Source of the DNA: Massalongia carnosa
Taxonomy: Eukaryota
Length of the DNA stretch: 64,000 nt
Assembly: GCA_965645245.1 (NCBI GenBank)
Contig: OZ287073.1
Location: forward strand, 434,001-498,000
Reading direction: 5' to 3'
Shown piece after piece: positions 12,958-58,063 of the stretch. The position numbers and the translations under genes are program-made. Within the stretch, counting starts at the first letter, position 1; every line of letters begins with the position of its first letter. The notes beneath the pieces are model-generated. The model was given only the letters and a program-made list of their open reading frames with translations, ran no database searches and was not told the origin of the DNA.

Positions 12958-13874
12958 ATGTCTATCATAGATATGTCACATCTTTTGGAGAAGGCCGAAA
13001 GATATTCGGCATGGGCAAGCTATACGAAGGGCAATCTGCTCAAGAATAACTGCGAAGGAGCCCTTCTAGAGAATCAATCAGAAATCACCGCTGAAACCAT
13101 CAAGGAAGGTTTAATACAAGCAGGCTTCGACGCCAAAGGTCTTTCTGTCAGCATCTTGGTAAAAGAGCTGCGTGACGAGAAGAATAGACAGAAGGCCGAG
13201 ATGACCAAGGCTATAGGAATCATTCACGGATTAGTTGCGGAGTGCCATTACAGCCTCATCGACAACAAGAATGCGGCAGAAATGTGGAAAATCCTGAAGG
13301 ATAGATTCCAAGATATAGCACCAATGAGCATCAGCGACATCATTCTGAAGGTTAGTTCTAAGAAGATGACTGACTTCGAGACCACCAGCCTATACTGTGC
13401 AGAGTACGAGAGCGCTTTAAACAAAATTAAAGGAATGCTGGACGACAAGGCCAAAGTGGATGTGCATACCGTGGAGTTCATGCTTCAGGGAATGATGCTG
13501 GGTAACACCACAGACGTCTATTCCCCATTGATAGCCCAACTTCGACGAGATTGGACACACGAAACCACAAACCTGTCGGAAGCAATGAAGACCATTGTTG
13601 CTTATTCTGTCAACATGAAAACACCAAGGCATTTCATATCAGCACACCTGACTCGAGAGGTCGAGCCCCATTTGGGACCTGCACCTTCTCTGAATGTGTC
13701 GAGAGAAAGAACACTCGTCATTGGCCAGATAACTGTTGGCAGAAGTTTCCACAGCTAAAAAGACATAGAAGTTCGCTCGAATCCGGAAGAGCAAAGAAAC
13801 AAAAGACTACCTCGTCAGAAACGAAGGCGGACTTACCTCATACATCACCCAACATTCCAACGGTGAGTAGTTGA
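12958..13874 (+). pseudogene. Copia-1 gag (frameshift near 13625)
   Basis: Copia gag-like AAEMWKILKDRF; the Zn knuckle CTFSECVERKNTRHWPDNC lies in a second frame that ends at TGA 13872-13874. Confidence 0.75.
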
Positions 13875-13937
13875 CTCACAGGTCATGGCCACAAGACTGC
13901 AAAAAGTCATGACCATGACGAATCTGAACAAGAACTC

Positions 13938-20007: not shown

Positions 20008-20332
20008 GTTAAGACCTGTGAGATGAACAATTGAATAGGTTCAAGTTATATCGTGCTTTACCTCGAAGAAAAGAAGGGATAAAAACGGGCTACTTATAAC
20101 AGTAGCGAATGCCGGGTAGACCTTTCACAATGATTCTTTTCATACAAAAACAAGGGGCAAATCGGGAACTGGCCCTGGATGCAAGCAGTTGCGAGTAGCT
20201 CCCAGGGCAACTAGCTCGGGGCTCGCTGAGCTGCGGTGGGATTGGTCTAATGATGGATGGATAACAGGTTGCTCGACGAAGTATTATGAATGTGATTTAA
20301 CTCTCCAACAGGGATTTGTTTTAAACTTTGTA

Positions 20333-22498
20333 TCCCTCTCGCTGTCATTCTAGCACCCCCCCCCAAGCTAAACCATTGTTGGTTAGAAAGCGCTAAACCT
20401 TAAACTTTTGACCAATCAATGTTATTCCTATTCACAAGAAGTTGTACGGAGTATCAGATACCTATTTACTCGTCCCCTATCATATGAATAGCTTCCCAAC
20501 AGCTGGCTTTCTTACAGCAGGGCCTGATTGGATTACATCCTCCACAAGCCCATATAGTCTGAGCACCCCTTCGCCTTCTTTTACGCCCATCGACACTTAT
20601 TTCAGCCAGTGGCTCTCCCTTCCGCTTTGAAGGTCGTTTTTTCTCGGCGTTACATTGCACACATCTTTTTCTGCCTTCAAGACGAACGTAATGATGAATG
20701 GGAGATGGTACTAAAGCATCAATCGTGGTATTGATGCTTATCTTTGATGAGCCGGGCCTGATGCCCGCTTGATTTGATATCAGTTCAAGAGCAATCCGAC
20801 GAAGAAATTCAGAACGAGTAAATTTTATCTCCTCGGAATCGAAAGAGTTCAGCGAGTAAAGTTTATAGGCATTCAATCCGGCTGCATCTAAAATAAAAAT
20901 GAACAAAGGCCACCAGTAACGATCCGTTCGACGATTGTATGAGTAAATCGCTCGTTGCTGAGCGTTTCCATCCGATCCCCCCATATGAAGATTATATTCT
21001 TTGATTGGGGCTGGTATCGGTAATCCTAAGGGCCGTTGAACCTCTTGATTGAGCAAGGGAATGGAGTGAGCCAGAGTTGATGGGAAATACGATACAATAG
21101 GTTGAAGAGAGGTCTCGGGAATTCCATATCTCTTGTGCGGATTTATAGTGCATTTCGTACAAGTCCTGAGGAGAATGACCGGTGGTCATGTACTGCACAC
21201 CATTATTATCCACCCAGCCCATACAAAGCACCTTATCGTCGACCACCATATGGGCCTGAAGACCCCAGTCTTTTCCTTTTGAAGTGACGTCCCGTATGGC
21301 CAACAATTCTTCTGGAAAGCCCGAGCCCTTTTTAGCAGTTCCACTGGCAGCTATTCCGATTGATCGAAGTGCCTTGAATAATTTCGTACTAGTAAAGAAA
21401 TTATCACAGAAAAGATGATAATTCAGTGAGGATGGAAGTTCTTTACATAACTGAATCACTAGCAAAGCACTAGGAGTTAGTTTATCTTTTGGCAAAAATC
21501 CCAATTGTCTGACTGTTTTCAATTCACTTATTCTGCTACTCTTCGAGGCAAACATAAATGACAACAGATAATTATCCTGACAGAGACTGTAGATTTTAAA
21601 TCCTTTATGGGCACTTTTTGTAGTAATCTGCAAGGTATGTCGAGAACGGCCCTTGAATAACACCAGCTGTTCATCTATAGATATCATACTTCCTGGTCTG
21701 CAATGTTTCAATGAAGTCTTTCGGAAATCAGTAGCCAACGGTTCCAGTTTCTTCCACCAATCAGGTCCTTGACCAAGTCCGATAGGCTCAGTCTGTCCAT
21801 TATTGATTTTCAAAAATCGTTTGATTTGTTGAAATCGACCAAGCGACATCGCGGACAGAATAGGCATGATAACTGGTTTGTCAGGACGTTGATTCCAATA
21901 ATCCTCTGTAGCAGGTAGATGATCGAGTCCCATAAGAATTAATATGCCCAAAAAAACCTCAATTTCCGAGTCAGTAGTGTCAGTCCAAACCCGATGATTG
22001 TTCTCCTTCTCCTTTTCCATGTAGTTATTTGCCTTGATATTGGTATGATTTGCGATGATACGACAATGCTGCCTTGTTATAAATAACCGAAATAATCCCA
22101 AAGGATTTCGAGAATCGTTTTCAACGAGCGGAACAAAAGGCCTGTTTTCAACCCGAATGGGGATATATTTTGAGGAAATAGGGGGAAGGTCGATTAAAAT
22201 ATCCCGAACACTTCTTTTGCGATTTATTTTATGTTGATTCGCTGAAATGGGAGATTTGTCTGATACACTCGGGATTTCTTCTTCATTGAGCGTCATACTT
22301 ATAATATCAATTCCGAAGCTAGAAGAATAGTAATTTATGTGATTTATTTTGATTGAATGACCGAATAGTATTCTTTGAAAAGTAAACAAACGCGCAAACA
22401 CTCTAGAGAAAACTAATGTTCTGATGACTCATCGGTGCGGAAGCTAGTCCAATATAGATTAGCTTGGGGGGGGGGTGCTAGAATGACAGCGAGAGGGA
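20333..22498 (-). mobile_element. piggyBac-like DNA transposon 1
   Basis: About 40-bp TIRs TCCCTCTCGCTGTCATTCTAGCACCCCCCCCCAAGCTAA and reverse complement; DDD transposase inside; flanks TGTA / TACA. Confidence 0.9.
20466..22296 (-). pseudogene. piggyBac-type transposase (frameshift near 21100)
   Basis: SIDEQL, FCDNFFTS, YNLHMGGSD and a C-terminal Cys-rich domain (CVQC...CGGC..CC..CW..H), split over ORFs 20992-22401 and 20466-21056. Confidence 0.85.
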
Positions 22499-22719: not shown

Positions 22720-25700
22720 CAGTGTTCGCAATGGAGTGATTCTTAATGGATATCCACTCCATTTAATCCACTCCAATCCACTCCAAAGGTTTTTTTTTTA
22801 AATGGAGTCCATCCAATAAGGTTTTAGGCTTAATGGAGTCACTCCAATAAGGATTTATCTAATGGAGTGGACTCCATGGAGTCCAATGGATTAGGGCCTA
22901 AAAATAGGTGGTGTTTTAGGTATAGCTCCAGGGGCCTTAAAGCTATGGTAATTCCCACATTTTAAGTGATATTTCACTTGTTTTACTGCTTTTATTCGTG
23001 TCAACCTACAAATATCACTTGCTATGGACTGAATTTGCTTCTATTTAAACTAGAAACCACCAAAATCCGTCCCGAACCGTACTTGCAGTGATGTCTGATA
23101 TTAGTGACGATACAACTACAACCCGCCCCGACCCTGGCGAGACAGAGTCAGTATTTGAGCTTCCTGGAGCATGTGATATCGACGTTCCTGAACGTATTAC
23201 GCGTGGCAGAAAGCGTACGGTTGGTTCAGCAGAGCTTGGGAATGAAGCTTCAAGAGTATTGATCCATATCCTTTATTTAATCAAGCTTATATATTAATAT
23301 ATGGCAGAGGTCTCCATCCCAGTCAGCCCTGAGCTTTTCTCGACGTTCCCCTGCACCCTCCACGACTTCCCAAGCTACGGAGCGTCCCCATATCATCCTG
23401 AGCGGCACTATATACTCTGAGAACGACAGGAACGCTCCTGGTAACCATTCCAGCAGCCCTTCTAGGCCGTCACCTATAACCTCTATTGAAGGCAGGGTTA
23501 TTGGTGGCCAGTTTTCGTCTCCTACAAGTGCAATAGCTTCAAAGAGAGCTAGAGCGAGCCGTAGTTGGATATGGGATTGGGGCACCAAGGCAGAGAGGGA
23601 GGGCAAGGCCTATTGGGTGTGTAACAAATGTAAAGTACCAGATTTATACTTATTTGCCATGTTTGCTATGAAAATTTGTATAGAACTCAGTGTAATTCCG
23701 CCCATTTTATATGTACCGAACCATCGAGTTGTCATTTTGACATGTACTATACATTTGTCCAATATCTATTTAATTTATATTAACGATTATTAAAGCTAAT
23801 TAACTACAGGTGTTGCAGACGGTTCTAATACTGAGTATATGATCACAAACGGCACTGCTTCATGTGGAGAGCACTTACGAAAGGACCATAATCTTGTTCC
23901 ACCTAAGGAAGCAGCTGCTAGGGCATCTATCTCTGTTGTTGAACATCTTCAACAAGGGGTAGTAGTTGCTCCTTTTAGTCCAGAAGTCTTTCGACAAAAG
24001 CTCTTACGATTTCTTTGTATTTGTCATATTCCTTTTGCCATTGTAGAGCAGCGTGCTTTTCGAGACCTGCTTTTATATTCAAGTCCGTATTTACGAGGCA
24101 ATGATACACTCCCCAAGTCGGGCAATTCCATTAAAGCTGCACTATTAGAGATATTTCTAGCTTGTCAACTTGTATTGATTCAGTTATTAGTGGAAAGCAA
24201 CTGCCAAGTCCATATATCCTTTGACTTATGGTCGTCTCCTAATAATTTCTCTATGCTAGGTCTTTGCTGTCACTTTATTGATCGTTCCTGGCAAGCACGT
24301 ACAGTGATTCTTGGCATGAAGCGTCTTATTGGACCCCATAGTGGAGAGAATATGTCAAAATTAATAGTCAAGGCCCTTGAAGCTTATAAACTAGGGGGTA
24401 GGCTCGGCTACTGTGTTTTGGATAATGCCGGTGATAATGACACTTGCTTGAGAGCAGTCGAGGAACATCTCCTTTTGCAGGGAGTTAGGTGGGACGCTGA
24501 TACTCACCGACTACGTTGTTTCGGCCATATCGTTAATCTCGTGGCAACTGCATTCTTAGAGAACAAACCTACGAAGCAAGCGCGTCAACGACTCCCAGGG
24601 GAGCCCAAGGCAGTCTGGAAACGTCCAATAGATGCTATTACGAAGCTTCATGTGATTATTGTCTTTATAATGGCCACCGCTCAAAGGATCGAGCAGTTTG
24701 AAGGGATTAATAAGACGATTCAAGACCCTCTCTTGCATCCAATTAAAGAGCAAATCACTAGATGGTTTTCAACTCTTAATATGCTTCGACGGGCCATTCA
24801 AATCAAAGACTCTCTTGATCTATTCGTCCATCGTAACTCTGAGCAATCATTTACTGAGAAGACTCTTTTTGATTCGCAAATGACGATTGACGATTGGAAC
24901 TACGCCAAGGAAGTGATTGCTTTTATGGAACCACTCGAAGAGCTTATGATGAGTTTACAAGGAAGAGAGATGTCTGGTATATTATATAAGCTTTAAATAA
25001 CTCGATAATCACTAAGCTTTTAATAGGAAATAATGGTTACGCTCACCAAGTGCTCCCTTCATATGATTTAATAAAAAAGGGGATGGAAGAGCAGCTATTT
25101 GGCTTTGAGCTTGATGAAGTCGATCAGTCAAACCCACAGGAACTAGCTAGTAAACGACTGGAACTGAACATTATTAACGCCATGCAAAAGCTAGAGAAAT
25201 ACCGTCAACTACTCACTTCCCCTATTTATTTAGTGGCCGTCGTCCTGATGCCCTGGTATAAGTGGACTTATTTTGAGGATAGTATGAGTGCTAGTGACCT
25301 TGCTCAAGCTCGTACGAAGGTCCAAAAACTTTGGCAAGACTTATATGCAAATATAGAGGTTGCTGAAGATGATACACCGTCACCTGGAAGTCAAAATAAT
25401 AAGGTATATTAACACTTATTAATATAAAAACACGGCTAACTATATTTGTAGCACGCTAAGCCCTCCCTTTTGAAGGAACACCTTAAAAAGGAGTACAAAC
25501 AAAGCTAAATCCACTGTCAGAGATGAATATAGACGGTACTGTAATACAGAACCAGTTGATGAAGATGGTTGCGGGTTCTCTGGCCACTTAGAATGGTGGA
25601 AAGCTCACGAGCCTCACTATCCTAGACTAGCTCAAATGGCCAGGGATATATTCTCTGTGCCTGGCATGAGTGCAGAGGTCGAACGCTTGTTCTCTTCGTC

Positions 25701-27202: not shown

Positions 27203-28678
27203 CAAGCTAAGAAGCGATAAAACCGACAACTAAAGTAGAAGCGAGTAGAACCGAAAGATATCGGCGGCAGGATTGAAAGATAATGAGCGCGAGATTAGAA
27301 AGCAAAGATTGCAAAAAGATGGTCTTTGGGGCCGGAATAAAATATCATAAATGGGAGAGAAGGGCAAAGTCGAGGAAGAAATAGGAAAGACCGTTTTGCG
27401 GGTAGCGAGACGAGATATTTGAGGTCAGACAAGGTCTAAATATTTGTCAAAGAGCAGCGGGGTCACTGTAGTGTAGAGATCGTGTAAGTGTAATCGTTGT
27501 TCATGCATGCGTCGATCATGCAACATGTTTACGTTGTAAGACTAAACCAGCAAAAGGAGCAACTTGCAGCTGTTAGAACAGTGACTTGCATCAGGCGGAA
27601 TGGTAGTTCTGGGCAATTGATTTTACTAGTTCGACAAACGAGTTCTTGCATATGCACAAACGAAACGATTGACTTTCTAACCGTGCGACCGAGGACTTCC
27701 ATGACGCTATCATCTCCTTGACGCATTTCTCAAACTATTTACGAAGGATGACGCCGAAAGTCCTTGCTAACGCTAAATATGCAGCTAAAAAGGCCACTTT
27801 ACATGGGTATATTTGCATTGATAGGTAGATAGTTATTAAATATCAATCCATCGAATAATCGCATGAAGCTATTCAGAATTATCACCATCATTATCTTTAT
27901 CACTTATACTCATCGCTGTCAGTGCTTTCTCGTTTGAGATGAGCGCGATGATATCGAACACGGCGATCTTCTTTATTATACGGTCGTACGACTCCGATCT
28001 CTCTACCTTCTCTATACTCGTTACCTCCGTCCAACAATATCACCTCGTCAACATGTCGCTTTATACGTTCAATCCAGGACTGAATTCTTTTCTGCGTCAA
28101 CTCCTCCGTCCAGCACTTTGTCCAGGCCTTTTCAGCCTCAATACGAGTCCTCGGAGCACCTAATCGAGTTGTTCTTCGCTTCATCCAGAACCAGCAAGGC
28201 TCGATCATGTTCAGATCAGGAGAATTTCCAGGCCATAACAGACGCATGACGTTGAAATCCATAAAGATCAGATTTTGATGTTTGGATGCGTGACTGGGGG
28301 CCTTGTCTTCCTGTACGATAGTGTTTGGTCGATCTATCATACATTCTTTTGCAAACGGAAGAAGCTTAGGAATTAAGACGAGTTTTTCATAACGATATCA
28401 GTCTACTCCTCCCTTGCCATCTCGAACGACTTTACCGTGTGTTTTATCCCATTTCCAGATAGGTTTTCGACCTCCTGGATTACGTAGCTTCATTCGTCTC
28501 ATGCTTGTTTCTAACTCCCAATCCTCTTTAGCTTCTGATTCTAAAGTCTTATTGAGTTTATCTAACTCAATTTGAGCCTCTCTTTTCTCTTTTGCGGTCT
28601 CTGTTTTTCAGATATGAAAAGGTTCTTTCTTATCGTACGAAAAACAGCCCCAAAACAAAAACTCGGAGCATCCTTTCC

Positions 28679-30457
28679 GAGATGCTTAGGGACAGTCTCC
28701 CCCCGACCGTCCCCCTGTGTAGATCTTTACTAGTAAACAGCCACTTTAATACTCATCCAGGATGCGTACAAGCTAGTATGCAACTGCCAACAGCACATTA
28801 AACTCTTTTCGGTTTAAATCGTATGACGTGTTATTGCTACTAATAAAGCATACCCTCACCCTCACCCTCACTTACCATTTGCCCTTGCCTATAAGAAAAT
28901 CGGTGCAGAAAATATGTGATGAGGTGCGGAAAAAACAATTAGATCAGGAGATTTTGTGCAATCAACAGCGAATACGCAATCCTAGATTGATCGATAGAAA
29001 TGCTTTTACGCTACTCATTGGGAAAATTACGCATCATGCCATTGGCCTCGTTTCAAGAGAACTCGATGCCGCCAAATCATTAGCTGAGAATCCTTTCTAT
29101 TGTCCCTGATGGTGGAAGCTGTGTTTATGATTGTGAATTGCCTTTAAGGTACGGTCTCCTATGCAAATGCTGGTTGTATAAATGCATCATCGACTCGGTC
29201 CCTATTCCCGTTTCCCTCATCCACCCCCGCTAGTTTTTTGATGGCCCACCTTATGCGGTCTCTTGGCAAATGACCTTCGATTTCGCTCGCGGCTCGGAGC
29301 CCGAGGTCGAAAAGATCGTCGATGAGGTCGAAGGCACGGGAGAGATTGAGGCGGATAAGGATGAGGTCGAGCTCGAAGAAGGCGTGTAGAGTGAGGATAG
29401 ATTTGATTTCGCCGCGGGGGCCTTGATTTGCTACATTCTGTGGCATATCAATCTATTGACCTGCATCAATCAATAGAAGATTCTCATCGAAGGGAGGAGT
29501 ACGCTCGCGAGCATTCTCACATCGTTGAAAAGTTCAATAAGAAATGGGCAAAAGAAGGAACTGGTAAGACCTCTCATCCCCACCACATTCCCCGACGAGA
29601 TTCGGCCCAAAGAAAACCTCATGTATAAGAAAGGAGGGAGTCGTCGACGTGCCTACACTGGTCGCGAGGCAGCTGAGGCTAGAGAAACTGAACAGCGACG
29701 TACTAGGCGAAGGGACTCTATTGAACAAGGGAGGAGGCTTAGATATAATAGATTGCGTGCTAGGGGCGACGACGAGGTTGAAGGTGAAACAGAAGGTAAA
29801 ATTCACGATGTTGCAAAGTTATTGCGCTCGGGTCGGCTAATATTGGGTACAATAGGTTTAGGAGATAACTTAGTTATGGAGAGAATCGAAAACGCGTCTA
29901 TCGTCTCCGACGACGATGACGAGGTGCAGTATATAAGCACTCGGCCCATTCTCGGTCGTTCTATGGATCCTATGCTTCCTTCGGATGACGATAATGATTT
30001 TATTCTTACATCAGAAGCCTCGTCGGATTCGCTCGAAGATATTGACGATGTGCTTGCCAAGCATAGTCAAAAAGCCCTACCTGAGGCTGCGCCGCCTCCA
30101 TCTCTTTATAGTCTTAGCCAAAACGTGCGCGCCAGTTAAATTCTCCCTACTTCCTCTGCAACAATGCGAAGGTCTCGGGGTGTGACGAAGAAATCAAACG
30201 GCGATGAGAAAGACGGTTGAAATCATGAAGCCTTGAAAAGATGATGTATCGCAATTGATTGACGAGTTTTTGGAGTTGAAGTCATCGCAATAGGTAGATT
30301 TGTAGGTGTTGAATACACTTAGTCAGTAACAGCAACATTATTAATACGTAGTGTAACTGTTAGCTTGTACGCACCCTGGATGAGTATTAAAGTGGCTGTT
30401 TACTGGTAAAGATCTACACAGGGGGACGGTCGGGGGGGGACTGTCCCTAAGCATCTC
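28679..30457 (+). mobile_element. Internally deleted Mutator (MULE) element, copy 1
   Basis: About 100-bp TIRs starting GAGATGCTTAGGGACAG; TSD GCATCCTTTCC (or its 9-bp core); SWIM-like CVYDCELPLRYGLPC remnant; no DDE core. Confidence 0.85.
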
Positions 30458-30786
30458 GCATCCTTTCCATCTACGTCGAATACACGTTTCACCATACATT
30501 TCTTTCGAGGTACGCCACTGAAGTCTTCTTCCACGTCTAGAACCCAATATAATACCTACTTGTTTTGTCAGTCCATATAACGTTCTTCCAATTATCAATA
30601 GTCCAGTGCTGATATTGCAAACAAAATTGCAGACGAGCCTCTTTCATGATCGAATCTAGACCTGGCTTTTTCGTGCTTTTACAGGGGCGAAACCCATTCT
30701 GTTTAAGCGTACGAAGTATAGTAGTGGAGGAGAGTTTATGATCAAAGCCAATCATAGCTGATGATTTTTCTCCGCTATTTCGATCT

Positions 30787-30957
30787 TGTAACGGTTCGAC
30801 CAAGCGTGGTGCGGACGGCAGGACCTACAGCGAACATAGCAGGAGTCCCAGTTATAGTAGAATAGAGCTTGGTCTGCGGACTAAGTATTGTGCCTTTTGG
30901 TCGGGAAGGACAGGTGGCGCAATGGTAGAAATCTATTCACTATCTCGCTTCGTCACA
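30787..30957. mobile_element. Solo LTR (171 bp)
   Basis: TGT...ACA ends; TSD GATCT. Confidence 0.8.
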
Positions 30958-31439
30958 GATCTTACACTACATTATTCAATATAGCTTGCTCTACCTCTGG
31001 TGTAACCTTTTTAAGTCGTCCTGAACGAGGTGCATCTTCTATATATTTCTACTTTTAAAATACGAGATACAGCTGGATCATATCCACGCTGTCGTGCTTT
31101 GATTTTGAGAGCTGAAATCGATCTTGTGGAGACTCAAGTCACTGCTTGGACGATTTTCGCCGCAATTCCGTGTTCTACAAGCGCTAAAGCCTGTATTCTA
31201 TGACCCTTATCGGTGCCGTTACCTTCGCTTGCGCTGGGGGGGGCTTTTAATTGGATGAATTGATTTGAATGCTTGAATTTGATTGGGCATGGGAACGACA
31301 CAGGTCAGCCCGGGCAGGCCTAGGCACGTGACTCGGGGTCGGTGCTGAGGTGAGAACCTCATCTTCTAGACCCGAGGCGTCTGCTGACGCTCAACGATCC
31401 GATAGATGATGCCCGACGGCAGTGCCCGACGGCGATGAT

Positions 31440-32603
31440 CTAGATGGAGGTGCCCGGCGGCGCTCCGGATCGATGCCCTGGTTGACCTGTACGCCCAATG
31501 GAATGCCCAATTGAGTAGGGGTAGGAGTTTGTAGGATTCGTCTCGGCGACGACAGCACGTGGGACTGCCAGAGGGATGCCTTTTTGAAAACTGAGGTTCA
31601 AATTGAATAGTGAGGCCTGGGACGTCTGAAAGTATAGCTGAAACGCGTTTGATGACCATCTTCCGACTCTCTGAATACTCTCATCCAGCATCCCGTGGTC
31701 GGCGGCGTGTTGTGCTGCTCCTTTTCTGAAGCTGTGTCCCGAGTATGCCGAGTCGTTGATGCCGGCGGCTATCAGTCTCTTTTTCAGGGATGCTATGACG
31801 GAGGCTCTGGTGAATGCGGTGCCGAGACGAAAAAGCGGGGATGTAGATGGCTGAGGATCATTTCTGAAAAGACGCCGTAGTGCTGTCACGGGGCAAGTGC
31901 TCTCATTGGTCGCTGCTAGCACTATCTGAACTCCTGAGTGATTTGTGTCTGTTTTGCTTCTTTTGAGACGTAATGTCGCGTATTGATCGTTCTCGGCGAA
32001 TGAGATGTCACCTCGTGTAGGTTTCAATCTCTGAAAAGATGTCTTCTTACGATCGGCGACAGTGTAGGTGATTTCCCCGAGTCTGAGGAACCCTGCCCAT
32101 GCAACTTTGAATGTCGCGTCGATGTTGAGGTCTTCGGCCGAATGAGCGGGAATACTGGTGATTTTTGTCAGTAATTCTTTTGAAATGGGTAGGCGTCTTC
32201 TTTTTGTCTGAGAAAAGATCCTTTTTCCCCCTTTCAGCATCAATTGAAGTCTCGGCCCCTCGAATGGGGTGAGGCCGTATCCTCGGTCTACATGGTATGA
32301 TCTGAGGCCGGCGAGGTAGCTCGCTGCCGTCTCTGGTTTTATCTTTCCCTGCTTGGGTGTGCCGCCCCGGTATAGTCGACCGGCTAGCCATTCCTCGAGG
32401 GACTCGGTTGTTGCAGGCCACGACGTGCGTCCCGTCGTCGCACAGAATGCCTCGTATGAGTCGATCGCCGTCCCGTACCCTTTTCTCGTGTCCGCCGAGT
32501 GTCCGTGCCAGACGAGGCGTTTTACCAGGGCTGACCCTGGTGTGGAGGATAGGTAGGTGGAGGGAGGTTCATCGAATTGTATGGGTTCTGCCAATGAGGG
32601 CAA
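31440..32603 (-). CDS. Tyrosine recombinase of the YR element
   Basis: Catalytic residues FLRLGE (R), SKTD (K), HSFR (H,R), GRWSS (W), QLY (Y); overlaps the end of RNase H. Confidence 0.92.
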   Translation of the reverse strand: MPSLAEPIQFDEPPSTYLSSTPGSALVKRLVWHGHSADTRKGYGTAIDSYEAFCATTGRTSWPATTESLEEWLAGRLYRGGTPKQGKIKPETAASYLAGLRSYHVDRGYGLTPFEGPRLQLMLKGGKRIFSQTKRRRLPISKELLTKITSIPAHSAEDLNIDATFKVAWAGFLRLGEITYTVADRKKTSFQRLKPTRGDISFAENDQYATLRLKRSKTDTNHSGVQIVLAATNESTCPVTALRRLFRNDPQPSTSPLFRLGTAFTRASVIASLKKRLIAAGINDSAYSGHSFRKGAAQHAADHGMLDESIQRVGRWSSNAFQLYFQTSQASLFNLNLSFQKGIPLAVPRAVVAETNPTNSYPYSIGHSIGRTGQPGHRSGAPPGTSI

Positions 32604-34220
32604 AAGTTAGCCAATCTTTCATCATCAAAACGTGACAGGGCATCTGCTAGTCCATTGGAAGTGCCACTGATCCATTGACAACGTAGTACGATGTCCCACT
32701 TTGCAGCTATGGACAGTATTTCTCGTAGAGGCGCGTTGGCCGGTCCCTTGAGGGTTAGATTCGTGAATCCTGTGTATGCTGTGTTGCTGTCGGTAAAGAC
32801 AAGGATCTGTCGATGTCGCCATGTCGGCGCCCATTTCTGAAGGATTAGAAGGATAGCCTCGACTTCTCGGACGTTTATGCTCGGTGATTCTTCCTGATTG
32901 ACTAGGACTCGGGCCCTACATGCGTTTTTTTGATTCACGAGCTCGTTGTCTTGTTGAAAATAGCCTCCGAGACCCGTGAGGCATGCATCCGTATGCACCT
33001 TGATCGTGTCTCGTGTTGACGTCTCGAAGAAGACAATACCGTTGAAGTCCACTAAAAGTTTGTTCCACTAGATGAGATCCTGTCTGACCCATGTGGGAAT
33101 TCTTCTTTTGACCCGACGATGACTGCCCGAGGGAAATGAGGCTATAAAAATTCCAGAATAATCGTAAGAAGACTCGGCCCAATTTGACTGCCTGTGCGCA
33201 GAAGCTTAGGAAGCCCGCTATTGACTGCATGTCGCCGAGGCTGATTGTCGTCTCGTTTAGTGCCTTTGTAGTGATGATTCTCGCTTTTTCCAGCTTGTCC
33301 GCTGGCAGACGAATAAGACTGTTGATGGTGTCGACCTCGAGTCCGAAGACTGTCGCTGTCGTTCCCTCGGCGTCTTTTGAGTCGTTTCTCGGGATGCCGA
33401 GAATGTCGGTGAGAATGTTGTAGGCTTTTGTTTCTTGGTGCAATCGTTCTGACGATGTCTCGGATGGGAAGATTGCAACGAAGTCGTCTAGATAGTGATG
33501 TAATCTCCATTGTAGAAAGGATTCCAAAATCCAATGAAAGCCTTCCGCAAAAAGATTGAAGATGAACGGGGCCGTCGACAGTCCGAACGAAAGGCATGTC
33601 TCGGTGTAGAATTCGTCATTCCATCCGAAACCCAGAAGCCATTGATGATGAGGTGCGACGGGAACGTTTCGAAAGGCGTCTTTGACGTCTCTTTTCACTA
33701 TGACAGCACCTTTGCCCTCTGACAGAATCAATTGAATAATGTCGTCGAGTCTGGCGTATTGTAATTTGGCCTCTTCTGGAATGTTGTCGTTGACTGATGT
33801 TTGATTGGGATGAGACAGATGATGAATGCGTCGCCATCCTCCGTCATGTTTCGGGACCAAGCCGAGGGGGGAGGCTACAAATGGCTGACTCGGGGCGGCT
33901 ATTCGTCTGACTCGGCCCTTCCTGAGGTCCTCTTGAAGCTTATTCTCGATCGTTTCCGGGTCCTCATTCGCTGATGTCAGATTTTTTTCGATCCGAAGGA
34001 TGTCTGTGGGGCCTTCGTATCCGATTTGTACTCCGAAACGAAGGATCATGGGCAGATGGACTCGGAGGGGGCCCGGATACTCTTGAAGTAGGGTTGCCCA
34101 TGCGGACGGTACGAGGGGAGATGGGCTGTCTTTCAAACGCTGACGAGATGCGTCTACGAGTTGAAACGAAGGGATTGTATTTGGTCTGATTGGTGCAGGT
34201 AAGCAGGGATGGGACGTCAT
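32522..34220 (-). pseudogene. RT/RNase H of the YR element
   Basis: SPLGLVPK, DVKDAF, LSFGL, YLDD; RNase H TDAC/REVE/TDS/ADALSR. An extra base in a T-run near 33148 and a TAG at 33068-33070 disrupt the fusion. Confidence 0.9.
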
Positions 34221-34265
34221 GAATTCAGCTATTGAAGCTATTCTACTGCCTCCTGCACCAACCCC

Positions 34266-35252
34266 CTATTTCTTCGTTGGGCATGTCTTCTGGCCATGCC
34301 CAGCCGCGCCGCACGATTTGCATTTGTGCTGTCGGTAGCACGACGGCCAGGTGCAGGTGCCGCTGTTGTACTTGTCGCAGATTTCTCCCGCTGCCTTCTC
34401 GGCCCTCTCGGCCCTGTCTCCTCTCGGGGTCGGTCGTCGGGACGGCGGGGATCGTGAGCGGCGACGGCGTAGGACTGTGAGGGGGGTGCAGAATCGAGCT
34501 TGGAATTCGTCGGGCATTTTCCATTGGGATGCGTCGGATGGCTGAGACGCGATGATGTGGGTGTGGGTTTCGATGGCGAGGGGGAGGACTGCTTCCTGCC
34601 ACTCGTACACCTTGGCCAGCGTGAGGATTTTTCCGTGGAATGCCGACATGGTGGCGTGAAGCTGTTGACTCGATTTCCCGAAAAGACTGACCATGATCGA
34701 GGTGCAGTTGATGAAGCTCTCGGTCCAGACGTCATGAACTGTCTTTCCGAAATCTTTGTAGGTCCCGGATGCCTTTCTCAACCTCAAGGCGCCGTCTTCG
34801 ATGCCGATGCGGTCTTGATCCTTGTATGACTCGTATTGCATGCCGTGCATGTGTCGGAGGCGGGAGAGGTTGATGGCTTTGAATTTATTTGAAAAGATCT
34901 TGATGATCTTGTCCTGTGGTAGGCCCGCGAAACGGGGTGCTATGCTTCTTACTTCGAGAAGGATCTCACCTAGGTCCTCGTCGTCATCGCCGACGACACG
35001 ACTCGGCTTGCCAGCAGGAATGACGGCCGCTATTCGGGCGTCAGATTCTCGGCGCATGCAGTCGATTTCTAGCTGCATTTTTTCCACCTCCTTCTCGGCG
35101 ACCAATGCCTTGGACTCGGCAATTCTAGCCTCAGCCTCGGCCGCCTTCGCTTCCGCCTCGGCTTTCTTCTTTTGTAGGGCGAAGATTTGATTGGACTGGG
35201 CCTGCGTCAATCCGACAATCTCCTGGGGGTCGGGGACTATGTCGTCCATCAA
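34266..35252 (-). CDS. ORF1 (gag-like) of the YR element
   Basis: Coiled-coil N-terminus; C-terminal CDKYNSGTCTWPSCYRQH plus CKSCGAAGHGQKTC zinc fingers. Confidence 0.8.
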   Translation of the reverse strand: MMDDIVPDPQEIVGLTQAQSNQIFALQKKKAEAEAKAAEAEARIAESKALVAEKEVEKMQLEIDCMRRESDARIAAVIPAGKPSRVVGDDDEDLGEILLEVRSIAPRFAGLPQDKIIKIFSNKFKAINLSRLRHMHGMQYESYKDQDRIGIEDGALRLRKASGTYKDFGKTVHDVWTESFINCTSIMVSLFGKSSQQLHATMSAFHGKILTLAKVYEWQEAVLPLAIETHTHIIASQPSDASQWKMPDEFQARFCTPLTVLRRRRSRSPPSRRPTPRGDRAERAEKAAGEICDKYNSGTCTWPSCYRQHKCKSCGAAGHGQKTCPTKK

Positions 35253-35879
35253 GGTGCTTTAGGAACGGGTGTTCGTCATTGGGAGGTAGGGGCACCGAGA
35301 CAACGTGAGGTCGACGACGAGTCAGTGAGATTGGAAAAGCAGCAAGCACTGACAGCGAGGTAGGGGCACCGAGACAACGTGGGGTCGACGACGAGTCAGT
35401 GAGATGGATGAGGCCGAGTGAGAAGAAGTGAATGAGGAAAGAATTTTCAGAGGGTGATTCTTAATTTACTTTGACTCAGGGGCCTCACGTGACATAGAAC
35501 CATCTCATCTTTGTGCAATCGTGAGACTATTGCTCTGTACATTGGGCATGATAATGATGATGATTAAAACCTTCTACTGCATATCAGATGTAGTATTGCT
35601 GTCTTTTTGACGACGAGAACAGAAGCAATTCGAGATTTTCTCGACTATTTTAGTACTATATTCCCCTTGTAAGCTAATAAACACTAATGCACGTCTCATG
35701 TACGCTAGCAAGGACTTTCAGCGTCATCCTTCGTACATTATATCCATTGATTGACCCTTTTAAAATGAAGCTATTCAAAATCAAATGCTGACGTTCATCT
35801 ATTCAGCTTTCGGCCTTTTTACCCACCAAGCCAAACCGTTTAGCTATCGCTTTTTCATAGAGAAATATTTTCTTTTGTC

Positions 35880-36470
35880 TAGCTGTCTCAGCACGCTTTT
35901 GATGACCCTTCTTGAATACGATGTAGATAATTGTGCCTCACATCTCGAACGATAACGATTCCTCCCTTCTGAACAACGATGCCAGCAAGCTTTTGTCGGG
36001 CCCTTTTAGCTAATGCAGCTGTATGTATGGCTTGCAAGTCGCGTTGCGTCAATTCTAGTAAATTAGCGTTTGCAATCGACCCTTTGATAAAACATCGCAT
36101 TCTTTCTGAAGTAATTTCTTCATTATTATTCATTCGTTGAATAAAGTTTTTCCCTTCCTTAACAACGTCTTTGAGCTTTTTAAGGATATAAGGTAGGATT
36201 ATTCTCTACGAAGAGGATATTGATAATGATGATAATGCCGGATTTAAAGCACGAATTTTGGTCAAGAATACCTTCGGATTGTGAGATATCAACCTAGTTT
36301 CTTCCCAGATTGATTTGATAGTAGATGATTTGAATGCCTTTGTACGAAATTGATTGAATGCGTCCAGAAAATCCAGACGATTGAAGTCAACGTCACCCAA
36401 CCGAATGACGTTCTTAACCGCTTCAGCATGATAATGTTCCATTGACTGAAAAATAGCAACGTCTAATGAT
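35880..36470 (-). pseudogene. Fot1/pogo transposase C-terminal remnant
   Basis: LDVAIFQ motif upstream of ORF 36206-36442, FKSSTIKS.W, and VQKGG in ORF 35888-36133. Confidence 0.65.
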
Positions 36471-37443
36471 GATAATTCTTATTTCGATGTGGTACAGGCC
36501 GAAGGCCGGCCATGCGGGCAAGTGAAAAACCAAGTAATCCGATACTTCTACGAATACTCTCCGAGTCTCCGTCGAGAGATCTTCCTAAAGAACAGTTGAC
36601 CGATGACAAGTTAAAGAAAAGAATCGACGTATTTAATCGCCAATTGTCAATGATATAAATGCTGTGCTGCCAGTGAGAACTGGGTTAGTAAGCCGGTCTT
36701 CATTAACCAAGCGGAAACTAGTTTCATCGCTCTGGATGAGTCAGTAATGAGTCGATAATTATTGTTCCTATGGAGCGTAACATTAAATGTCTGTTACTGT
36801 TGAGTTTGCAAAACATGATTACATGTTTCGCGGTTTGTTTTGGCCAGCCACATGGACACTTCGGTGTCAAGACGTCGGGAACGCGACGTCTAAATAGGAA
36901 GTCGGCTGGACCTATCTTTTCTGAGCGTATCTGAATTGTTAGAGCGCTTTCTGCTTTGGCTAGAGTTTCGTGTAATTTGATGCGTGTTTTTGTGAGTGGG
37001 GCTACTTGTGCTGGAGTAGGCGTAGATGTGAGGTTCTGATATGATTTCCAAGAGGTCTGCCATGCGTCTGTGTATCGTTGTTTTATTTTTGCGATTATTT
37101 TGCCTTGAACGGCACGCGCTTCTTGGATGTCTCGAGCTGTATTTGGGGGGGTTTCGGCCCATGGTGGGTTCGCTACCGGCATCAGGCTTTTTTGGGTATC
37201 CGATGTTATTTTCTTGGCCTATGCATATTTCAGCGTTCCCGGAGTACTCGTAGGAGCTCGCTTTCGTCCAGCCCGTCCTCTGAGTTTGTTTGCAATGGAG
37301 TTGCATGTATTGATGATAAATTTCTTTTGACCTCCCTGACACAAGCGATGTCTAGCCTGAGCCTGAAGTTGATCTAGATGTATATCAATTGGGGCTATGT
37401 ACATTTCCGCTTCCAGTACCGGTATGGGAGTTGCCCTAAATGC

Positions 37444-39252
37444 GAGGTGCTTAGGGACAGTCCCCCCCCGACCGTCCCCCCCCTCCCCCCCCCTGTGTAA
37501 ATCTTTGCTAGTAAACAGCCATTTCACTGCTTATCCAGGGTGCGTACAAGCTAGTAATGCAACTGCCAACAGCACATTAAACTCTTTTCGGTTTAAATCG
37601 TATGACGTGTTATTGCTACTTATAATTATCCTACTCGGCCTGATAAAGCATACCCTCACCCTCATCCTCACCCTCACTTACCATTAGCCCTTGCCTATAA
37701 GACAATTCAGTGCAGAAAATATGTGATGAGGTGCGGAAAAAACAACAGCGAATACGCAATCCTAGATTGATCGATAGAAATGCCTTTACGCTACTCATTG
37801 GGAAAATTACGCATCATGCCATTGGCCTCGTTTCCAGAGAACTCGATGCCGCCAAATCATTAGCTGAACGAATCCTTTCTATTGTCCCTGATGGTGGAAG
37901 CTGTGTTTATGATTGTGAATTGCCTTTAAGGTACGGTCTCCCATGCAAATACTGGTTGTATAAATGCATCATCGACTCGGTCTCTATTCCCGTTTCCCTC
38001 ATCCACCCCCGCTAGTTTTTTGATGGCCCACCTTATGTGGTCTCTTGGCAAATGACCTTCTATTTCGCTCGCGGCTCGGAGCCCGAGGTCGAAAAGATCG
38101 TCGATGAGATCGAAGGGACGGCAGAGATTGAGGCTGATAAGGATGAGGTCGAGCTCGAAGAAGGCGTGTTGAGTGAGGATAGATTTGATTTCGCCGCGGG
38201 GGCCTTGATTTGCTACATTCTGTGGCATATCAATCTATTGACCTGCATCAATCAATAGAAGATTCTCATCGAAGGGAGGAGTACGCTCGCGAGCATTCTC
38301 ACATCGTTGAAAAGTTCAATAAGAAATGGGCAAAAGAAGGAACTGGTAAGACCTCTCATCCCCACCACATTCCCTGACGAGATTCGGCCCAAAGAAAACC
38401 TCATGTATAAGAAAGGAGGGAGTCGTCGACGTGCCTACACTGGTCGCGAGGCAGCTGAGGCTAGAGAAACTGAACAGCGACGTACTAGGCGAAGGGACTC
38501 TATTGAACAAGGGAGGAGGCTTAGATATAATAGATTGCGTGCTGGGGGCGACGATGAGGTTGAAGGTGAAACAGAAGGTAAAATTCACGATGTTGCAAAG
38601 TTATTGCGCTCGGGTCGGCTAATATTGGGTACAATAGGTTTAGGAGAAAACTTAGTTATGGAGAGAATCGAAAACGCATCTATCGTCTCCGATGACGATG
38701 ACGAGGTGCAGTATATAAGCATTCAGCCCATTCTCGGTCGTTCTATGGATCCTATGCTTCCTTCGGATGACGATAATGATGTTATTCTTACATCAGAAGC
38801 CTCGTCGGATTCGCTCGAAGATATTGACGATGTGCTTGCCAAGCATAGTCAAAAAGCCCTACCTGAGGCTGCGCCGCCTCCATCTCTTTATAGTCTTAGC
38901 CAAAACGTGCGCGCCAGTTAAATTCTCCCTACTTCCTCTGCAACAACGCGAAGGTCTCGGGGTGTGACGAAGAAACCAAACGGCGATGAGAAAGACGGTT
39001 GAAATCATGAAGCCTTGAAAAGATGATGTATCGCAATTGATTGACGAGTTTTTGGAGTTGAAGTCATCGCAATAGGTAGATTTGTAGGTGTTGAATACAC
39101 TTAGTCAGTAACAGCAACATTATTAATACGTAGTGTAACTGCTAGCTTGTACGCACCCTGGATGAGTAGTAAAATGGCTGTTTACTAGTAAAGATTTACA
39201 CAGAGGGGGGGGGGTGGGGGACGGTCGGGGGGGGACTGTCCCTAAGCATCTC
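37444..39252 (+). mobile_element. Internally deleted MULE, copy 2
   Basis: Near-identical to 28679-30457; TSD GCCCTAAATGC (or its 9-bp core). Confidence 0.85.
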
Positions 39253-39964
39253 GCCCTAAATGCCCCAGCTATAGTTCGTAAGCATTTATTCTGTATGACG
39301 GCTAGCTTGTTTGAGATGCCGTTCGATTTTTTTTATGTCCTTTGGCGTGTGCCATATGGTAGAACCATACGTCATGGCCGGACGGACTACGGCGGTGTAT
39401 ACTTGGCGGGCTTTTGGAAAGGTGGCGCCCCATGTGGAGATAGAAATTTTTGTCAGTGCCTTGGATTGTTTTGTCAATTTTTCCTGGATCTTTCTGACGT
39501 GCGGACCCCATTTCAATTCTGTGTCGATTCGAAGTCCCAAGATTCTAATGTCCGTTTTTGGTTCTATGTTGCTGTTTTCTATTCTAACGACAGTAGACAT
39601 GTTGAATTTCTTCGGATTTCTTGACAAGTGTATCAGTTCGTACTTTTTCGGTGCAAAAACTGCTCCGTGTCGAATAGCCCATTTTTCGCATTTCTTGTGA
39701 ATTTCCTCCAGCGTTTTGCAGTTTTCTTCCGTGCTTTTCCCATATGCTAGTACGTTTATGTCGTCTACGAAACCTAAGGCGCTCGTGTTTGTTCCGGGTC
39801 TTTCACATATGTCTAACAGGTCTACGTTATAGAATAGATAAAGGATATGAGAAATAGGAGAGCCTTGTGGTATTCCAGTTCGTACTTCGAATATGCCGGT
39901 GGCTCGGCTATGTATTGCTAGCGTGGTGCTTCTTAAAAACTGTCTACCCAGGTGCCAGTCAGTA

Positions 39965-41692
39965 CAGTCAGATCGGGTTATAAGAAACTGCTGATTAAGA
40001 AACCTCGGCTAGTAAGAAACTCGGACGAAAAGGCCGGTTTTTTTCTGGTGAGGGATAAGAAACCTCGCTCTATTAGAAAGTTTTTTAACTTTCTCTAAAA
40101 AATTTGCGGTGGTTTCTTATAGTAAATATGACTTCTCCTTCGACTTCTTTGAGATATAATAGTCAAAATCCGGAGACTCCATCTCGAAATCCTTGAAAAC
40201 GTCCTACATCCCCGCTTTCTCCCAGAGAGAGAAGCAGAAAAAAGCGTGACGCCTTTACCGACGACCAACGACGAGCATTATGACAGCGTTACCAAGATCC
40301 TGCTGTATCTGGAGATGACAAGAAATACGAAAAACTGGCTGTTTGGTTTGACAATCTTTACCGTCATAAAATTGACAAAGGACAAGTTTCCAAAATCCTC
40401 TCACATAAATGGGCTCATCTGGATACATCTCACGCATTGCTACGCCCGAATCTGAAGAAAACTCGAACTGCACATTGGCCTGAATTAGAAACGGCCTAAT
40501 TTGAGTGGCAACAGCGCATGCAACGCAAAAAGAGCGCCTTTGTCGGGCGATTTGTTAAGAGAAATGGCCTTGAAATTTTGGAAACGATTACCTCTATATC
40601 GTAATCAACCATCTCCCAGGTTCTCTATTGGATGGCTGAATTCTTTCAAAAGAAGATACAAGATTACAAAACATAAACAACACGGCGAGCTCTATTCCGT
40701 CAAGCGTATGGAGGTTGAAGAAGAGCTAGAAGTAATACGGGTACAGCTATTATCATACGATCAGGATGATATCTATAACATGGATGAAACTGCGTTATTT
40801 TGGAAGGCTACACTCAGTACTACATTGGCTACGGAAAAGCCCTCAGGCGGCAAGGTGGAAAAAGCGAGAATTACTGCAAATTTCTGTTGCAATGCTATTG
40901 GAACTCACAAGCTTCTCATATGGTTCATTGGGACGGCCAAAAATCCGCGTGCTTTTGGTTCACAGGGTGTTCACGCTTGTAACCTGCATATGGTATGACG
41001 CAGTAACAGCAGAGCTTGGATGTCGGACGATACATTTCAGGAGTATTTACGCTGGTTTAATGGTAACGTAAGTCGTAAGGTTGACTGAAATCTCGTGTAA
41101 TCGGGGCAAAATATGGGCCAATGACTCGAGAAAAGGCAGAGAAATATGGCTATCTCAATGAGGCTCGGGCACAAGAGCAAGAAACGGAGCAACGACTACA
41201 GATACAAGCTACAATACGGCGTTTGGAAGACCGTGGTCATATACAAAGCGCCATGCATATTGGCGAATTTCTGAACCCTGTTGAAGAGGTGGTAGAGGAT
41301 AACGAAGAGGATAACGAAGAGGATTTGAAGGATCACATCGTTGCTATATATGGTGACCATGAAATGGAATACGAGACGGGGGAGAAGGAGGTCATTGTAT
41401 CACGTGTTCAAAACAAGGACGCTCTACGAGCTCTTGAAACGTTACGGTTATATGAGGAGCAACGAGAGGTCGGTGACGATGATTTGATACGTCGTCTGAA
41501 TCGTAAAGAGTGAGATATCAAGACCTCAATGGCGATTAGCTCTAGGCAAGCTGTAATGACGGATTTCTTTGTCATTAGGTAGTCGATAGGTATAGTCTTG
41601 AAAATATGCCAAGAATTTTGATATTAGAAACCTCGCCTAATAAGAAACCTAGATGCTACGATTTTGGAGTTTCTTATAACCCGATCTGACTG
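39965..41692 (+). mobile_element. CENP-B/Tigger-type pogo transposon, deleted
   Basis: TIR CAGTCAGATCGGGTTATAAGAAACT; TA TSD; FSIGWLNSFKRR, HGE, YNMDETAL; rest of the DDE domain missing after about 41085. Confidence 0.88.
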
Positions 41693-42190: not shown

Positions 42191-44771
42191 ATCGTCGGCT
42201 CGCTTACCTCCGGGATCCGACTTGAAAAATTGTCGACCGCATTTTAGTCGGGGAAAGCGGTTGCATCCCGGAAAGCGGTTGCATCCCGGAAAGCGGTTGC
42301 ATCCCCCCAAATTCAAATTTCTTCATCTTTTTGATCATTGACCAACAACCACATTGATTAAAAATCAGCCGATACCGTATATAGCTTGAAAATCATTTCT
42401 CCGACCCAACTGATTATCAATTCAAATCCTTTCCTTTCGAATCAATCCCCCGAACCAATCTCCCCTTTCGAATCATGGATAACGACGCCTCCCTTGTCTC
42501 CACTCTCAACCCCATGGAAAGATTGAAAAAGGCGAAGGAATTTCTGACAAATCATCCCAAAGAAAGTAAAACGACTGCAGCTAGAATCTACAATATCAAC
42601 GTTAAAACTTTGACGTCTTCCATTCGTCGACCATAAGGGAGGAAAATTGGAGGACAAAATTAGATACTGAGGGAGCATGAGGCAAGGTCAATTACTGGCT
42701 TTATTAAGTCCTTATTGATTCATGGAATTCTTCCTACACATCAGATGGTTTTCAAGGCTATTGTAAGTCTGAAAAAGGCCTATAACCCCCTCGAGGTAGG
42801 CCCGTCAAGAAGATGGTTTCGGAGCTGGTGGAAATGTAACAAACTTCATAAAATAAAGACAAAACCACTAGCAATGATTCGTTATAAAGCTGCCCAAGAA
42901 TCAGATGTGATGGAATGGTTTGAAATGTATAGAGAGGTGTTGAAAGAGTTGAAAATTCGAAAAAGTCGGAACATTTTGAACTTTGATGAAGCTGGTTTTC
43001 GGGTTGGATGCATGAGGGGTCAGGAAATCATTGTTCCTGAGGAAATCAAACAATTCTACGCCGTCAGCCCGGAAAATCGCAGATCTGCGACAGTTATTGA
43101 GACTATCAATGCTGCCGGCGACTATCCCCCCCTCCAATGATCATCGTACAGGGTCATGACATCATGGCCACATGGTTTTCGGAAGGTGTGCGCTCGAACA
43201 GTGATTTTACATCTGATAAGATAGCAATTAAATATTTGAAGCATCTTATCAAACATACAAATGCAGGACCTGATGCGGAATGGCAATTATTGCTGATGGA
43301 TAATCATGGCAGTCATACAACCCCTGAATTTTCACTTTTGGCCAATGAGAATCGCATTCGACCCTTTCCCTTTATACCACATTTAACTCATTGCATGCAA
43401 CCATTGGATGTGGGCGTATTTCAGCCTTATAAGCATTGGCATTGCAAACCTATTGAGGAAGTCGTTGCGTCGTCATTTGTCGAGTATTCTGTCTCAATTT
43501 ATACAGGACTTGACCAAAAGCAGAAATCATACATTCAAGACTTCTACGATTCGGCATAAATTTGAAAAGTCGGGAATGTGGCCGATTGATCCAAAGGCAT
43601 GCATTCGTCAGCTGAAAAATTTCAATCCCAATGATCCCAATGATTCATTAAACAGTCTGAATACGAATAATGAGCCCTCATTACCCCTACCCCCACCTCG
43701 TCAAATCCAACCGACAAAATTAGCTGACATTGAGTATGGTTTGAGTCAATAGGGACCGAAATCAGAAAATCCATGCAATGGAGTGATCCCGCTCGGGCTG
43801 AGGAATGGGACTCATTTGTAGACAATACAAATGAAGTTGTTTCGAATACGATTATCGATGGCATGGAGTTGGAAATGCATCGAGAATCAAGAAGAAGTCA
43901 GTTAAATAACAGACGAATGTCTCGTAAACGTCTGAGACCAGAAACCGGAAGATTGGGAATCACAGCGGAAGATGCAAAGCAGGCTATAGCCATCAGACTA
44001 CAACAGGATCAAGAGGCTGAGGAGAAACGAGCGAATAATAGCTTCATGAAGCTATGGCGAATAGTAAGATATGAAATGCATGTCAAGGGATTGGCTGCTC
44101 GAAAAACAGAAAGAGATCGAGTCAAACAGCTGAAAGAAATGCAGAAAATGCTCGGTCCCATTCCAATTGAGATGTATGAGAAGATTCCTGACCCCGAGGC
44201 ATTATGGAAGGCCACGAATGAGGTATGGATAGCTGAGGAAGCGAAGAAGGAAATTAGAAAGAATCCGCGTGACAATGTCAATGAGGAAGATGTCACGTTT
44301 ATCGTAGATAACACCGGTCATGGAGATAATTCAATCCTTCCAGATCTTCTAGAAGGAGAAACATGGCTACGATATGATTTCGTATCTTTCGATTTGGAAG
44401 AATCATTGAAAGAATTCGATTTAGAAGCATCTTTTCAACCAGGAGATGCGAATAATTGGTAGAATGCGGGGTATGCGGGGTATGCGGAGTAAGCGGAGAA
44501 TCACGAGGGTCAGGGGGTCAGGGGGGTCAAGGGAAATGATTTTGACGACGATGATGATGACGGCGATGATTTTCAAGCTATGTACGGTAGCGACTGATTT
44601 TTAATCAATGTGGTTGTTGGTCAATGATCAAAAAGATGAAGAAATTTGAATTTGAGGGGATGCAACCGCTTTCCGGGATGCAACCGCTTTCCGGGATGCA
44701 ACCGCTTTCCCCGACTGAAATGCGGTCGACATTTTTTCAAGTCGGATCCCGGAGGTAAGCGAGCCGACGAT
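42191..44771 (+). mobile_element. Fot1/pogo transposon with long TIRs, copy 1
   Basis: About 200-bp TIRs starting ATCGTCGGCTCGC, each holding three 18-bp repeats GGAAAGCGGTTGCATCCC; TA TSD. Confidence 0.92.
42476..44462 (+). pseudogene. Fot1/pogo transposase
   Basis: NFDEAGF, LMDNHGSH, QPLDVG; multiple stops and frameshifts. Confidence 0.88.
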
Positions 44772-44821
44772 TATAGACCTGAATTTCTAAGCATCGAAGA
44801 TACCAGAAATTCCCAGATGTT

Positions 44822-58054: not shown

Positions 58055-58063
58055 TCTTTTCCC
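58024..58063 (-). promoter_or_regulatory. Putative -1 ribosomal frameshift signal
   Basis: Slippery heptamer GGGAAAA (58057-58063) at the end of gag, followed by stem ACCTCCA...TGGAGGT; pol is in the -1 frame. Confidence 0.7.

Follow-up and report, generated by a model that had tools for sequence, protein, structure and literature searches.

How does a retrotransposon that relies on a tyrosine recombinase (YR) come to be inserted in its host DNA with no long terminal repeats at either end? The question is raised by a 4308-bp element on the minus strand of a 64,000-nucleotide stretch of the Massalongia carnosa genome (assembly GCA_965645245.1, contig OZ287073.1, positions 434,001 to 498,000), hereafter the window, in whose coordinates all positions are given. 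An initial annotation had seen in it an Ngaro-like element of a distinct minimal-end lineage, bounded by an exact 10-bp core and targeted to a matching genomic site. The element is indeed an Ngaro-like YR retrotransposon; its ends lie elsewhere, and the reading that we favour, with some reserve, is that it represents a single-junction copy (A-ORFs-B) of an Ngaro-type family whose full form would be A1-ORFs-B1-A2-B2, where A and B denote repeat units and ORFs the open reading frames between them.

Gene content and state of the copy

The whole copy spans 31200..35507 and has the form A-ORF1-RT/RH-YR-B, without an A2B2 tail (RT, reverse transcriptase; RH, RNase H). Along the element strand, ORF1 (34266..35249) encodes a Gag-like protein of 327 aa with a Cys/His-rich, knuckle-like C-terminus (weak Pfam match to zf-CCHC_6, E 0.02), and homologues of it are present in related loci. 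The reverse transcriptase frame (32916..34265, minus strand; Pfam RVT_1, E 2.6e-12) retains its YLDD motif and is followed by the RNase H frame (32522..33067, minus; Pfam RT_RNaseH, E 2.2e-07), which overlaps the 388-aa open frame of the tyrosine recombinase (31440..32606, minus; R175, K218, H291-x-x-R294, W317 and Y325, with a weak match to Phage_integrase). A gag-like ORF, RT, RNase H and YR, with neither protease nor DDE integrase among the Pfam matches of the four element frames, make up the gene set of a YR retrotransposon (order DIRS), and the presence of both RT and RNase H sets the element apart from Cryptons, which have a YR without reverse transcriptase. No methyltransferase domain was matched by Pfam at E 0.1 in the element frames, and the overlap of the RH and YR frames leaves no room for one.

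Self-comparison of 31200-35650 bears out the annotation's remark that long split direct repeats and inverted terminal repeats (ITRs) are missing from this copy. Apart from a tandem duplication in the 5' leader (35283..35405, plus strand; two 49-nt units at a distance of 74 nt), whose unit number differs among contigs, it revealed no long direct or inverted terminal repeats, and neither DIRS-type ITRs nor an internal complementary region (ICR) was found; A and B are each present once in the window. At about 31347-31372, within the element, is a stretch similar to the end junction; its score is reached by 0.45% of shuffles of the 3' region and does not stand out against the element as a whole. 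This stretch forms a hairpin when folded and was rejected as a miniature B1A2 or ICR. A one-base frame shift (frame offset 1) lies ahead of RNase H, near 33146. The base at 33146 is absent from the contigs of all four sequencing runs (X1, X2, X3 and X5, out of 22 listed) that were compared with window positions 30700-36100, and these contigs do not have the RT/RH frameshift. Given this frameshift and the lack of an internal template, the window copy is probably not autonomous.

The ends of the element

The element interrupts a copy of a Tc1/mariner transposon. Sequence in the four runs diverges from the window by a few percent and represents other copies of this Tc1, not the locus before insertion. 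Contigs of X1, X2 and X3 (three runs from two studies) contain an empty-site joint, 31196->35508, at which three letters fit either side; the X2 contig measures 315 nt, made up of 191 nt of right flank and 124 nt of left flank, and X1 also has a variant joint, 31197->35510. It follows from this joint that the element occupies 31200-35507 and shares three bases only with its target (AGA on the element strand). Run X5 covers 31213-35510 of the element and the adjoining Tc1 and none of the right Tc1 flank, which indicates that 31213-31281 travels with the element. The 3' end is thus marked by the arm ATAGA (31197..31201, minus), in which 31197-31199 form the three-base core that fits both sides, and the 5' end (35494..35510, minus) by the shared core (35510-35508), a 9-nt spacer (35507-35499) and the arm TCTAT (35498-35494). 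No target base was gained or lost at the empty site and the 11 relatives with both flanks show no duplication, in agreement with the earlier claim that a classical target-site duplication (TSD) is lacking. Crossover at a short sequence common to element and target is likewise supported, with a shared core of about 3-5 bases.

The 10-mers ATTGGGCATG, taken at first as the ends of an element at 31282..35550, do have exactly two occurrences in the window (31282 and 35541), both in other settings. The left one (31282..31291, plus) lies inside the element as one arm of an imperfect inverted repeat (31282-31316 / 31474-31511), while the right one (35541..35550, plus) falls about 30 bp beyond the element, in the region of the Tc1 start codon, and contains, as had been noted, the probable transposase ATG. 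The 15 joints listed include none at the 10-mers. Two windows of about 250 nt shared a 10-mer in 241 of 4000 random draws from the stretch, a rate which repeats in the window inflate and in which pairs less than 1 kb apart were skipped yet kept in the denominator; chance therefore suffices for the ATTGGGCATG pair.

Two independent checks on Tc1 agree with the contig ends. Deletion of 31282-35540, that is of the element with one copy of the 10-mer, was thought to restore a continuous Tc1 and instead gives a stop after 23 codons; the contig join keeps the frame into a conserved Tc1 helix and yields an N-terminus that matches homologues. In the N-terminus comparison, 42 of 104 longer homologues could be aligned to the segment that both joins share, and 22 had the 13 upstream residues needed for scoring; the contig join scored higher in 15 of these 22 (mean 4.2 vs -4.4). 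Three of the homologues (P0170, P0175 and P0177) have exactly 13 residues ahead of the conserved helix and start with MPN-x-QS, as does the right-flank piece.

A junction motif shared with relatives

Homologues of the YR number 303 among 6016 candidates, and a metagenome search with a 40-sequence YR alignment returned 167 related stretches, of which the best 80, with identities of 34-50%, were kept. The internal B1|A2 junction of these relatives reads ATARA (ATAGA or ATAAA), a spacer starting with T, and TYTAT (TCTAT or TTTAT), in other words two inverted 5-mers around an 8-9-nt spacer (8 nt in 15 matches, 9 nt in 11 and 7 nt in one). This motif, split in two, gives exactly the ends of the window element: ATAGA at 31201-31197 and, from 35507, the 9-nt spacer and TCTAT. 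Of the 50 related loci in which 450 nt or more follow the catalytic Tyr, 25 carry the motif (L075 being a chance match), compared with 4 matches in 151 kb of coding DNA, an enrichment which is descriptive because the pattern was drawn from the loci in which it was counted. On this sequence evidence we propose ATARA-spacer-TYTAT as a newly defined candidate recombination site.

Among 20 left junctions (19 relatives and the window) a T at -4, an A at -3 and an A at -1 are each found in 17 (binomial p ~1e-6 each), in a set in which 11 of the 19 relatives belong to one family and mutation resembling repeat-induced point mutation (RIP) may have altered some letters. G stands at -2 in only 4 of the 20, and T follows the right end in 10 of 18. 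With these positions at 17/20 each and no 10-bp flanking match in any relative, the target preference is a loose TANA bias, and the proposed targeting to a 10-bp site is not upheld. All left junctions begin with the element's own spacer and right junctions never carry spacer plus arm; the crossover position is the left edge of the spacer.

Split repeats in the wider clade

Split direct repeats are present in the wider clade, in elements whose YRs are 34-50% identical to that of the window. One family, F1, is represented by seven full copies, each about 4.74 kb long, with an A1 of about 105 bp and a B1-A2-spacer-B2 tail in which B is about 150 bp, and further families have the same A1..B1A2B2 layout. 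Exact B1/B2 runs in F1 measure 19-42 nt, short enough to make assembly collapse unlikely. In every one of the copies L035, L036, L048, L054, L055, L057 and L080 the internal B1 bears more RIP-like changes (11-21/140) than the terminal B2 (4-11). Of 13 diverged relatives whose 3' flank is resolved, 9 carry the full tail and four (L041, L043, L065 and L076, with 6-7 kb of flank and no A in the 1.5 kb tested) stop after B1, a count that leaves out copies cut by contig ends as well as L042, L075, L006 and L013, which may be collapsed. In L006 and L013 a B end is present and the internal junction is absent.

A quick tree built with IQ-TREE from 102 YR rows (the window, loci with 200 or more aligned residues and 20 of the 120 listed homologues; three of the rows are bacterial YRs) places the window element in a 41-row clade (SH-aLRT 95) together with L074, a split-repeat locus, and repeat-bearing loci are spread over several other separate clades. 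The idea of a distinct minimal-end lineage is so far unsupported, since relatives across the YR tree carry A1..B1A2B2 with the same junction motif and B1-ending copies occur within those very families. The extended copies with split repeats that would speak against such a lineage exist among related elements; within the family of the window itself, a single A-to-B link in X3 may hint at them. The nearest Atlas cluster is eukaryotic, with Basidiomycota commonest, and serves as a lead only.

Some further features of the relatives deserve mention. In L039 (1-3489 and 3490-8274) a YR element of family F3 is inserted, in opposite orientation, in one of family F1. The B end of L007, L011, L012, L030 and L062 runs through the junction into A and ORF1, as collapsed repeats, tandems or circles would, and in several related families tandem arrays lie directly 3' of the YR gene (L004, L014, L016, L023 and L051). 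Viral contigs yielded no relatives from 35 pattern matches. Prokaryote genomes yielded five loci, namely four distant bacterial YRs and one related element (L081), which sits on a 3-kb contig of a bacterial metagenome-assembled genome and is probably a mis-binned fungal contig.

The missing tail

In the family of the window, one contig of X3 links 31497 to 35333, which is A followed by B on the element strand. This single joint (31497->35333, side 28) sets the inner boundaries of a putative A repeat unit of 175 bp (35333..35507, minus) and a putative B repeat unit of 301 bp (31197..31497, minus). The latter starts 135 nt past the catalytic Tyr codon, and in relatives B1 starts 126-281 nt past that codon in 11 of 12 cases and 586 nt past it in one. 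In relatives 56-94 nt separate A from B at the corresponding place. The single-junction reading rests on the empty-site joint in three of four runs, the Tc1 N-terminus and the junction motif in relatives, on the full tails in 9 of 13 relatives, the several repeat-bearing clades and an X3 link where B1 starts in relatives, and on published precedent: two papers put on record Ngaro copies that have lost their 5' or 3' repeats (PMC9210276) and solo AB units (PMC8547959).

If the published Ngaro model applies, RNA would run from A1 to B2, the internal B1|A2 copy would serve as the template from which reverse transcription restores the ends, and the cDNA would close to a B|A junction, giving a circle. 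We suggest that the YR would then bind the inverted arms and exchange strands immediately past the left arm with a target sharing no more than 3-4 bases. The constant presence of the whole spacer on the 5' end is compatible either with a single strand exchange that replication or repair then completed or with two exchanges followed by biased repair. In the window copy the A2B2 tail could have been lost by recombination between B1 and B2, whether homologous or mediated by the YR; alternatively, the copy may have arisen from a circle with one junction.

A number of observations weigh against this reading. The window copy is the sole full copy of its family read. The A-to-B link is one contig in one of four runs, with a 5-base look-alike stretch at the join, and may for that reason be an internal deletion; it is absent among the joints listed for X1, X2 and X5, and a B-to-A joint is not among the 15 listed. 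Both 31497 and 35333 are crossed by uninterrupted contigs in X2 and X5, no X5 contig connects the two ends, and the X2 depth at 31370 is 281, not double that of the interior (~170-300), the depth bins in X1 and X3 being too noisy for repeat doubling. The relatives with known ends are only 34-50% identical in the YR, and the 55-91% relatives are not among them. To these must be added the circular derivation of the motif and a quick YR tree that holds no reference Ngaro sequences. All of these contig data would be accommodated by a mixed family with full copies or solo AB units as a minority.

Alternative explanations

The strongest rival, possible though in our view unlikely, is that the family itself gave up split repeats, so that nearly all copies are A-ORFs-B. 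Such a family might move as DNA circles that the YR excises and reinserts, or by reverse transcription of transcripts reading through the B|A junction of circles or of copies arrayed head to tail, and the A-B link would be a small non-autonomous derivative. The repeat-free window copy, the unbroken contigs and undoubled depth in X2 and X5, the want of an end-joining contig in X5 and the B ends of L006 and L013 are all as this explanation predicts, as are tens of near-identical YR proteins: the 90% cluster of the YR has 54 members, which is consistent with tens of young copies. Against these stand the X3 link at the expected place and the split repeats that are the rule in relatives; moreover, minor branches are dropped from contigs, assembly may have collapsed L006 and L013, and intact RT/RH in other copies fits ongoing retrotransposition. 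A bolder version, which we regard as rather doubtful, would have a high-copy ascomycete YR family, largely without split repeats, spreading as single-junction units via an excisable lox-like site ATARA-spacer-TYTAT and forming a bridge between Ngaro retrotransposons and Crypton-like DNA transposons.

It is improbable that the locus does have an A2B2 tail which assembly collapsed. Such a tail would place two identical 300-bp B repeats some 0.5 kb from each other, which would invite collapse; however, the near-identical proteins lie on large contigs (0.58-3.8 Mb for the 15 listed members of the 90% cluster), which suggests long reads, and the window keeps its 74-nt-period tandem and longer tandem arrays uncollapsed. 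That the ATTGGGCATG 10-mers are the true ends is scarcely credible: they are exact, confined to two places and within 85 bp of the true ends, but a shared 10-mer has a chance rate of about 6%, the left one pairs with an internal partner, three runs place the empty-site joint elsewhere, the resulting join is out of frame, homologous N-termini favour the contig join, no relative has a 10-bp flanking match, and rescue through a different Tc1 subfamily with another 5' end is made unlikely by the homologue test.

Host and surroundings

A methyltransferase gene 4 kb from the element has 46 homologues, of which all the named ones are from filamentous ascomycetes (best 62-65%), and an Atlas look-up agrees with this placement, so that the neighbouring gene, as the annotation had asked to be confirmed, points to a filamentous ascomycete host. 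The classes represented are Lecanoromycetes, Leotiomycetes, Dothideomycetes and Sordariomycetes. RIP was rejected as a host marker: repeats in the window are without strong RIP (transitions:transversions 30:12 and 36:16, vs 400:1 in F1), and host placement therefore rests on the neighbouring gene.

The host Tc1/mariner copy (27737..35738, minus; Pfam HTH_Tnp_Tc3_2 and DDE_3) is delimited by a terminal inverted match (27737-27772 / 35703-35738) and is interrupted by three elements: the YR element, a solo long terminal repeat (LTR) and a 1.8-kb element with terminal inverted repeats. The solo LTR (171 bp, 30787-30957) has TG...CA ends and a 5-bp duplication, GATCT, and its depth in X1-X3 is far above the surroundings, with many different flanks. 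The 1.8-kb element (28678-30458) has 98-nt terminal inverted repeats and a second copy at 37443-39254 (93% identical); its 220-aa frame has no Pfam match. Beyond Tc1 the window holds two pogo/Fot1-type DDE_1 copies (43123-44774 and 60464-62166, 93% identical) and a dense field of transposable elements with little RIP (3931-10470, 12877-17207, 47780-51608, 54224-59334, 20992-22428, 23800-24996 and 39286-40008), whose long frames read as two Ty3/gypsy, two copia, piggyBac-type, hAT-like and LINE-like elements (with Pfam for 20992 and 39286 only). A 543-aa open frame at 18409-20040 has no Pfam match at E 0.001.

Significance and comparison with known systems

In the 2013 survey of 177 fungal genomes, Ngaro elements are found in Basidiomycota, and Ascomycota are represented by one truncated, repeat-less remnant in Neosartorya fischeri (PMC3783388); a 2026 paper still places Ngaro-type elements mostly in Mucoromycota and Basidiomycota (PMC13465315). 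Automatic LTR/Ngaro labels in a lichen fungus (bioRxiv 10.1101/2023.01.10.523206) and a black yeast (PMC7601665) mean that a presence in Ascomycota is not wholly unreported. A literature search that did not cover Repbase turned up neither an intact Ngaro family described from an ascomycete nor an account of the ATARA-spacer-TYTAT junction motif. Tens of near-identical copies in a filamentous ascomycete and hundreds of relatives point to an overlooked radiation, and a junction motif kept across families with YRs less than 50% identical, together with the crossover position and target bias, offers a concrete substrate for a test of YR specificity. If it were true that most copies lack repeats, the standard model of Ngaro end rebuilding would need an exception. 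The value of the finding lies in host range and in a testable candidate recombinase site.

DIRS-like elements (DIRS-1; PMC7192593, PMC3266345) are flanked like the window element by a shared trinucleotide, one copy of which comes from the circle junction and one from the target; according to a 2020 paper, the specificity of the DIRS YR had not been tested experimentally (PMC7192593). The window element differs from them in having no ITRs, ICR or methyltransferase, and a core of AGA rather than NTT. PAT-like elements share split direct repeats with our relatives and differ in the methyltransferase domain, which the window element lacks. Lox/att-type YR sites, and those of homology-light integrases such as Tn916 Int and integron IntI, have inverted binding arms around a short spacer and need little target homology, and the site described here may be likened to them by resemblance only. 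With Cryptons and Starships the element shares YR crossover at a short microhomology instead of a TSD (PMC13465315); unlike the window element, these have no RT, and their YRs belong in part to other Pfam families. The closest match is with Ngaro-like elements, which in fungal clades 1-4 (PMC3783388) and in the Cafeteria and Xenopus Ngaro have the same order of gag, RT/RH and YR, no methyltransferase and no TSD, and whose A1..B1A2B2 arrangement recurs in our relatives; the window copy is distinguished from them by having no A2B2 tail and by its host, a filamentous ascomycete.

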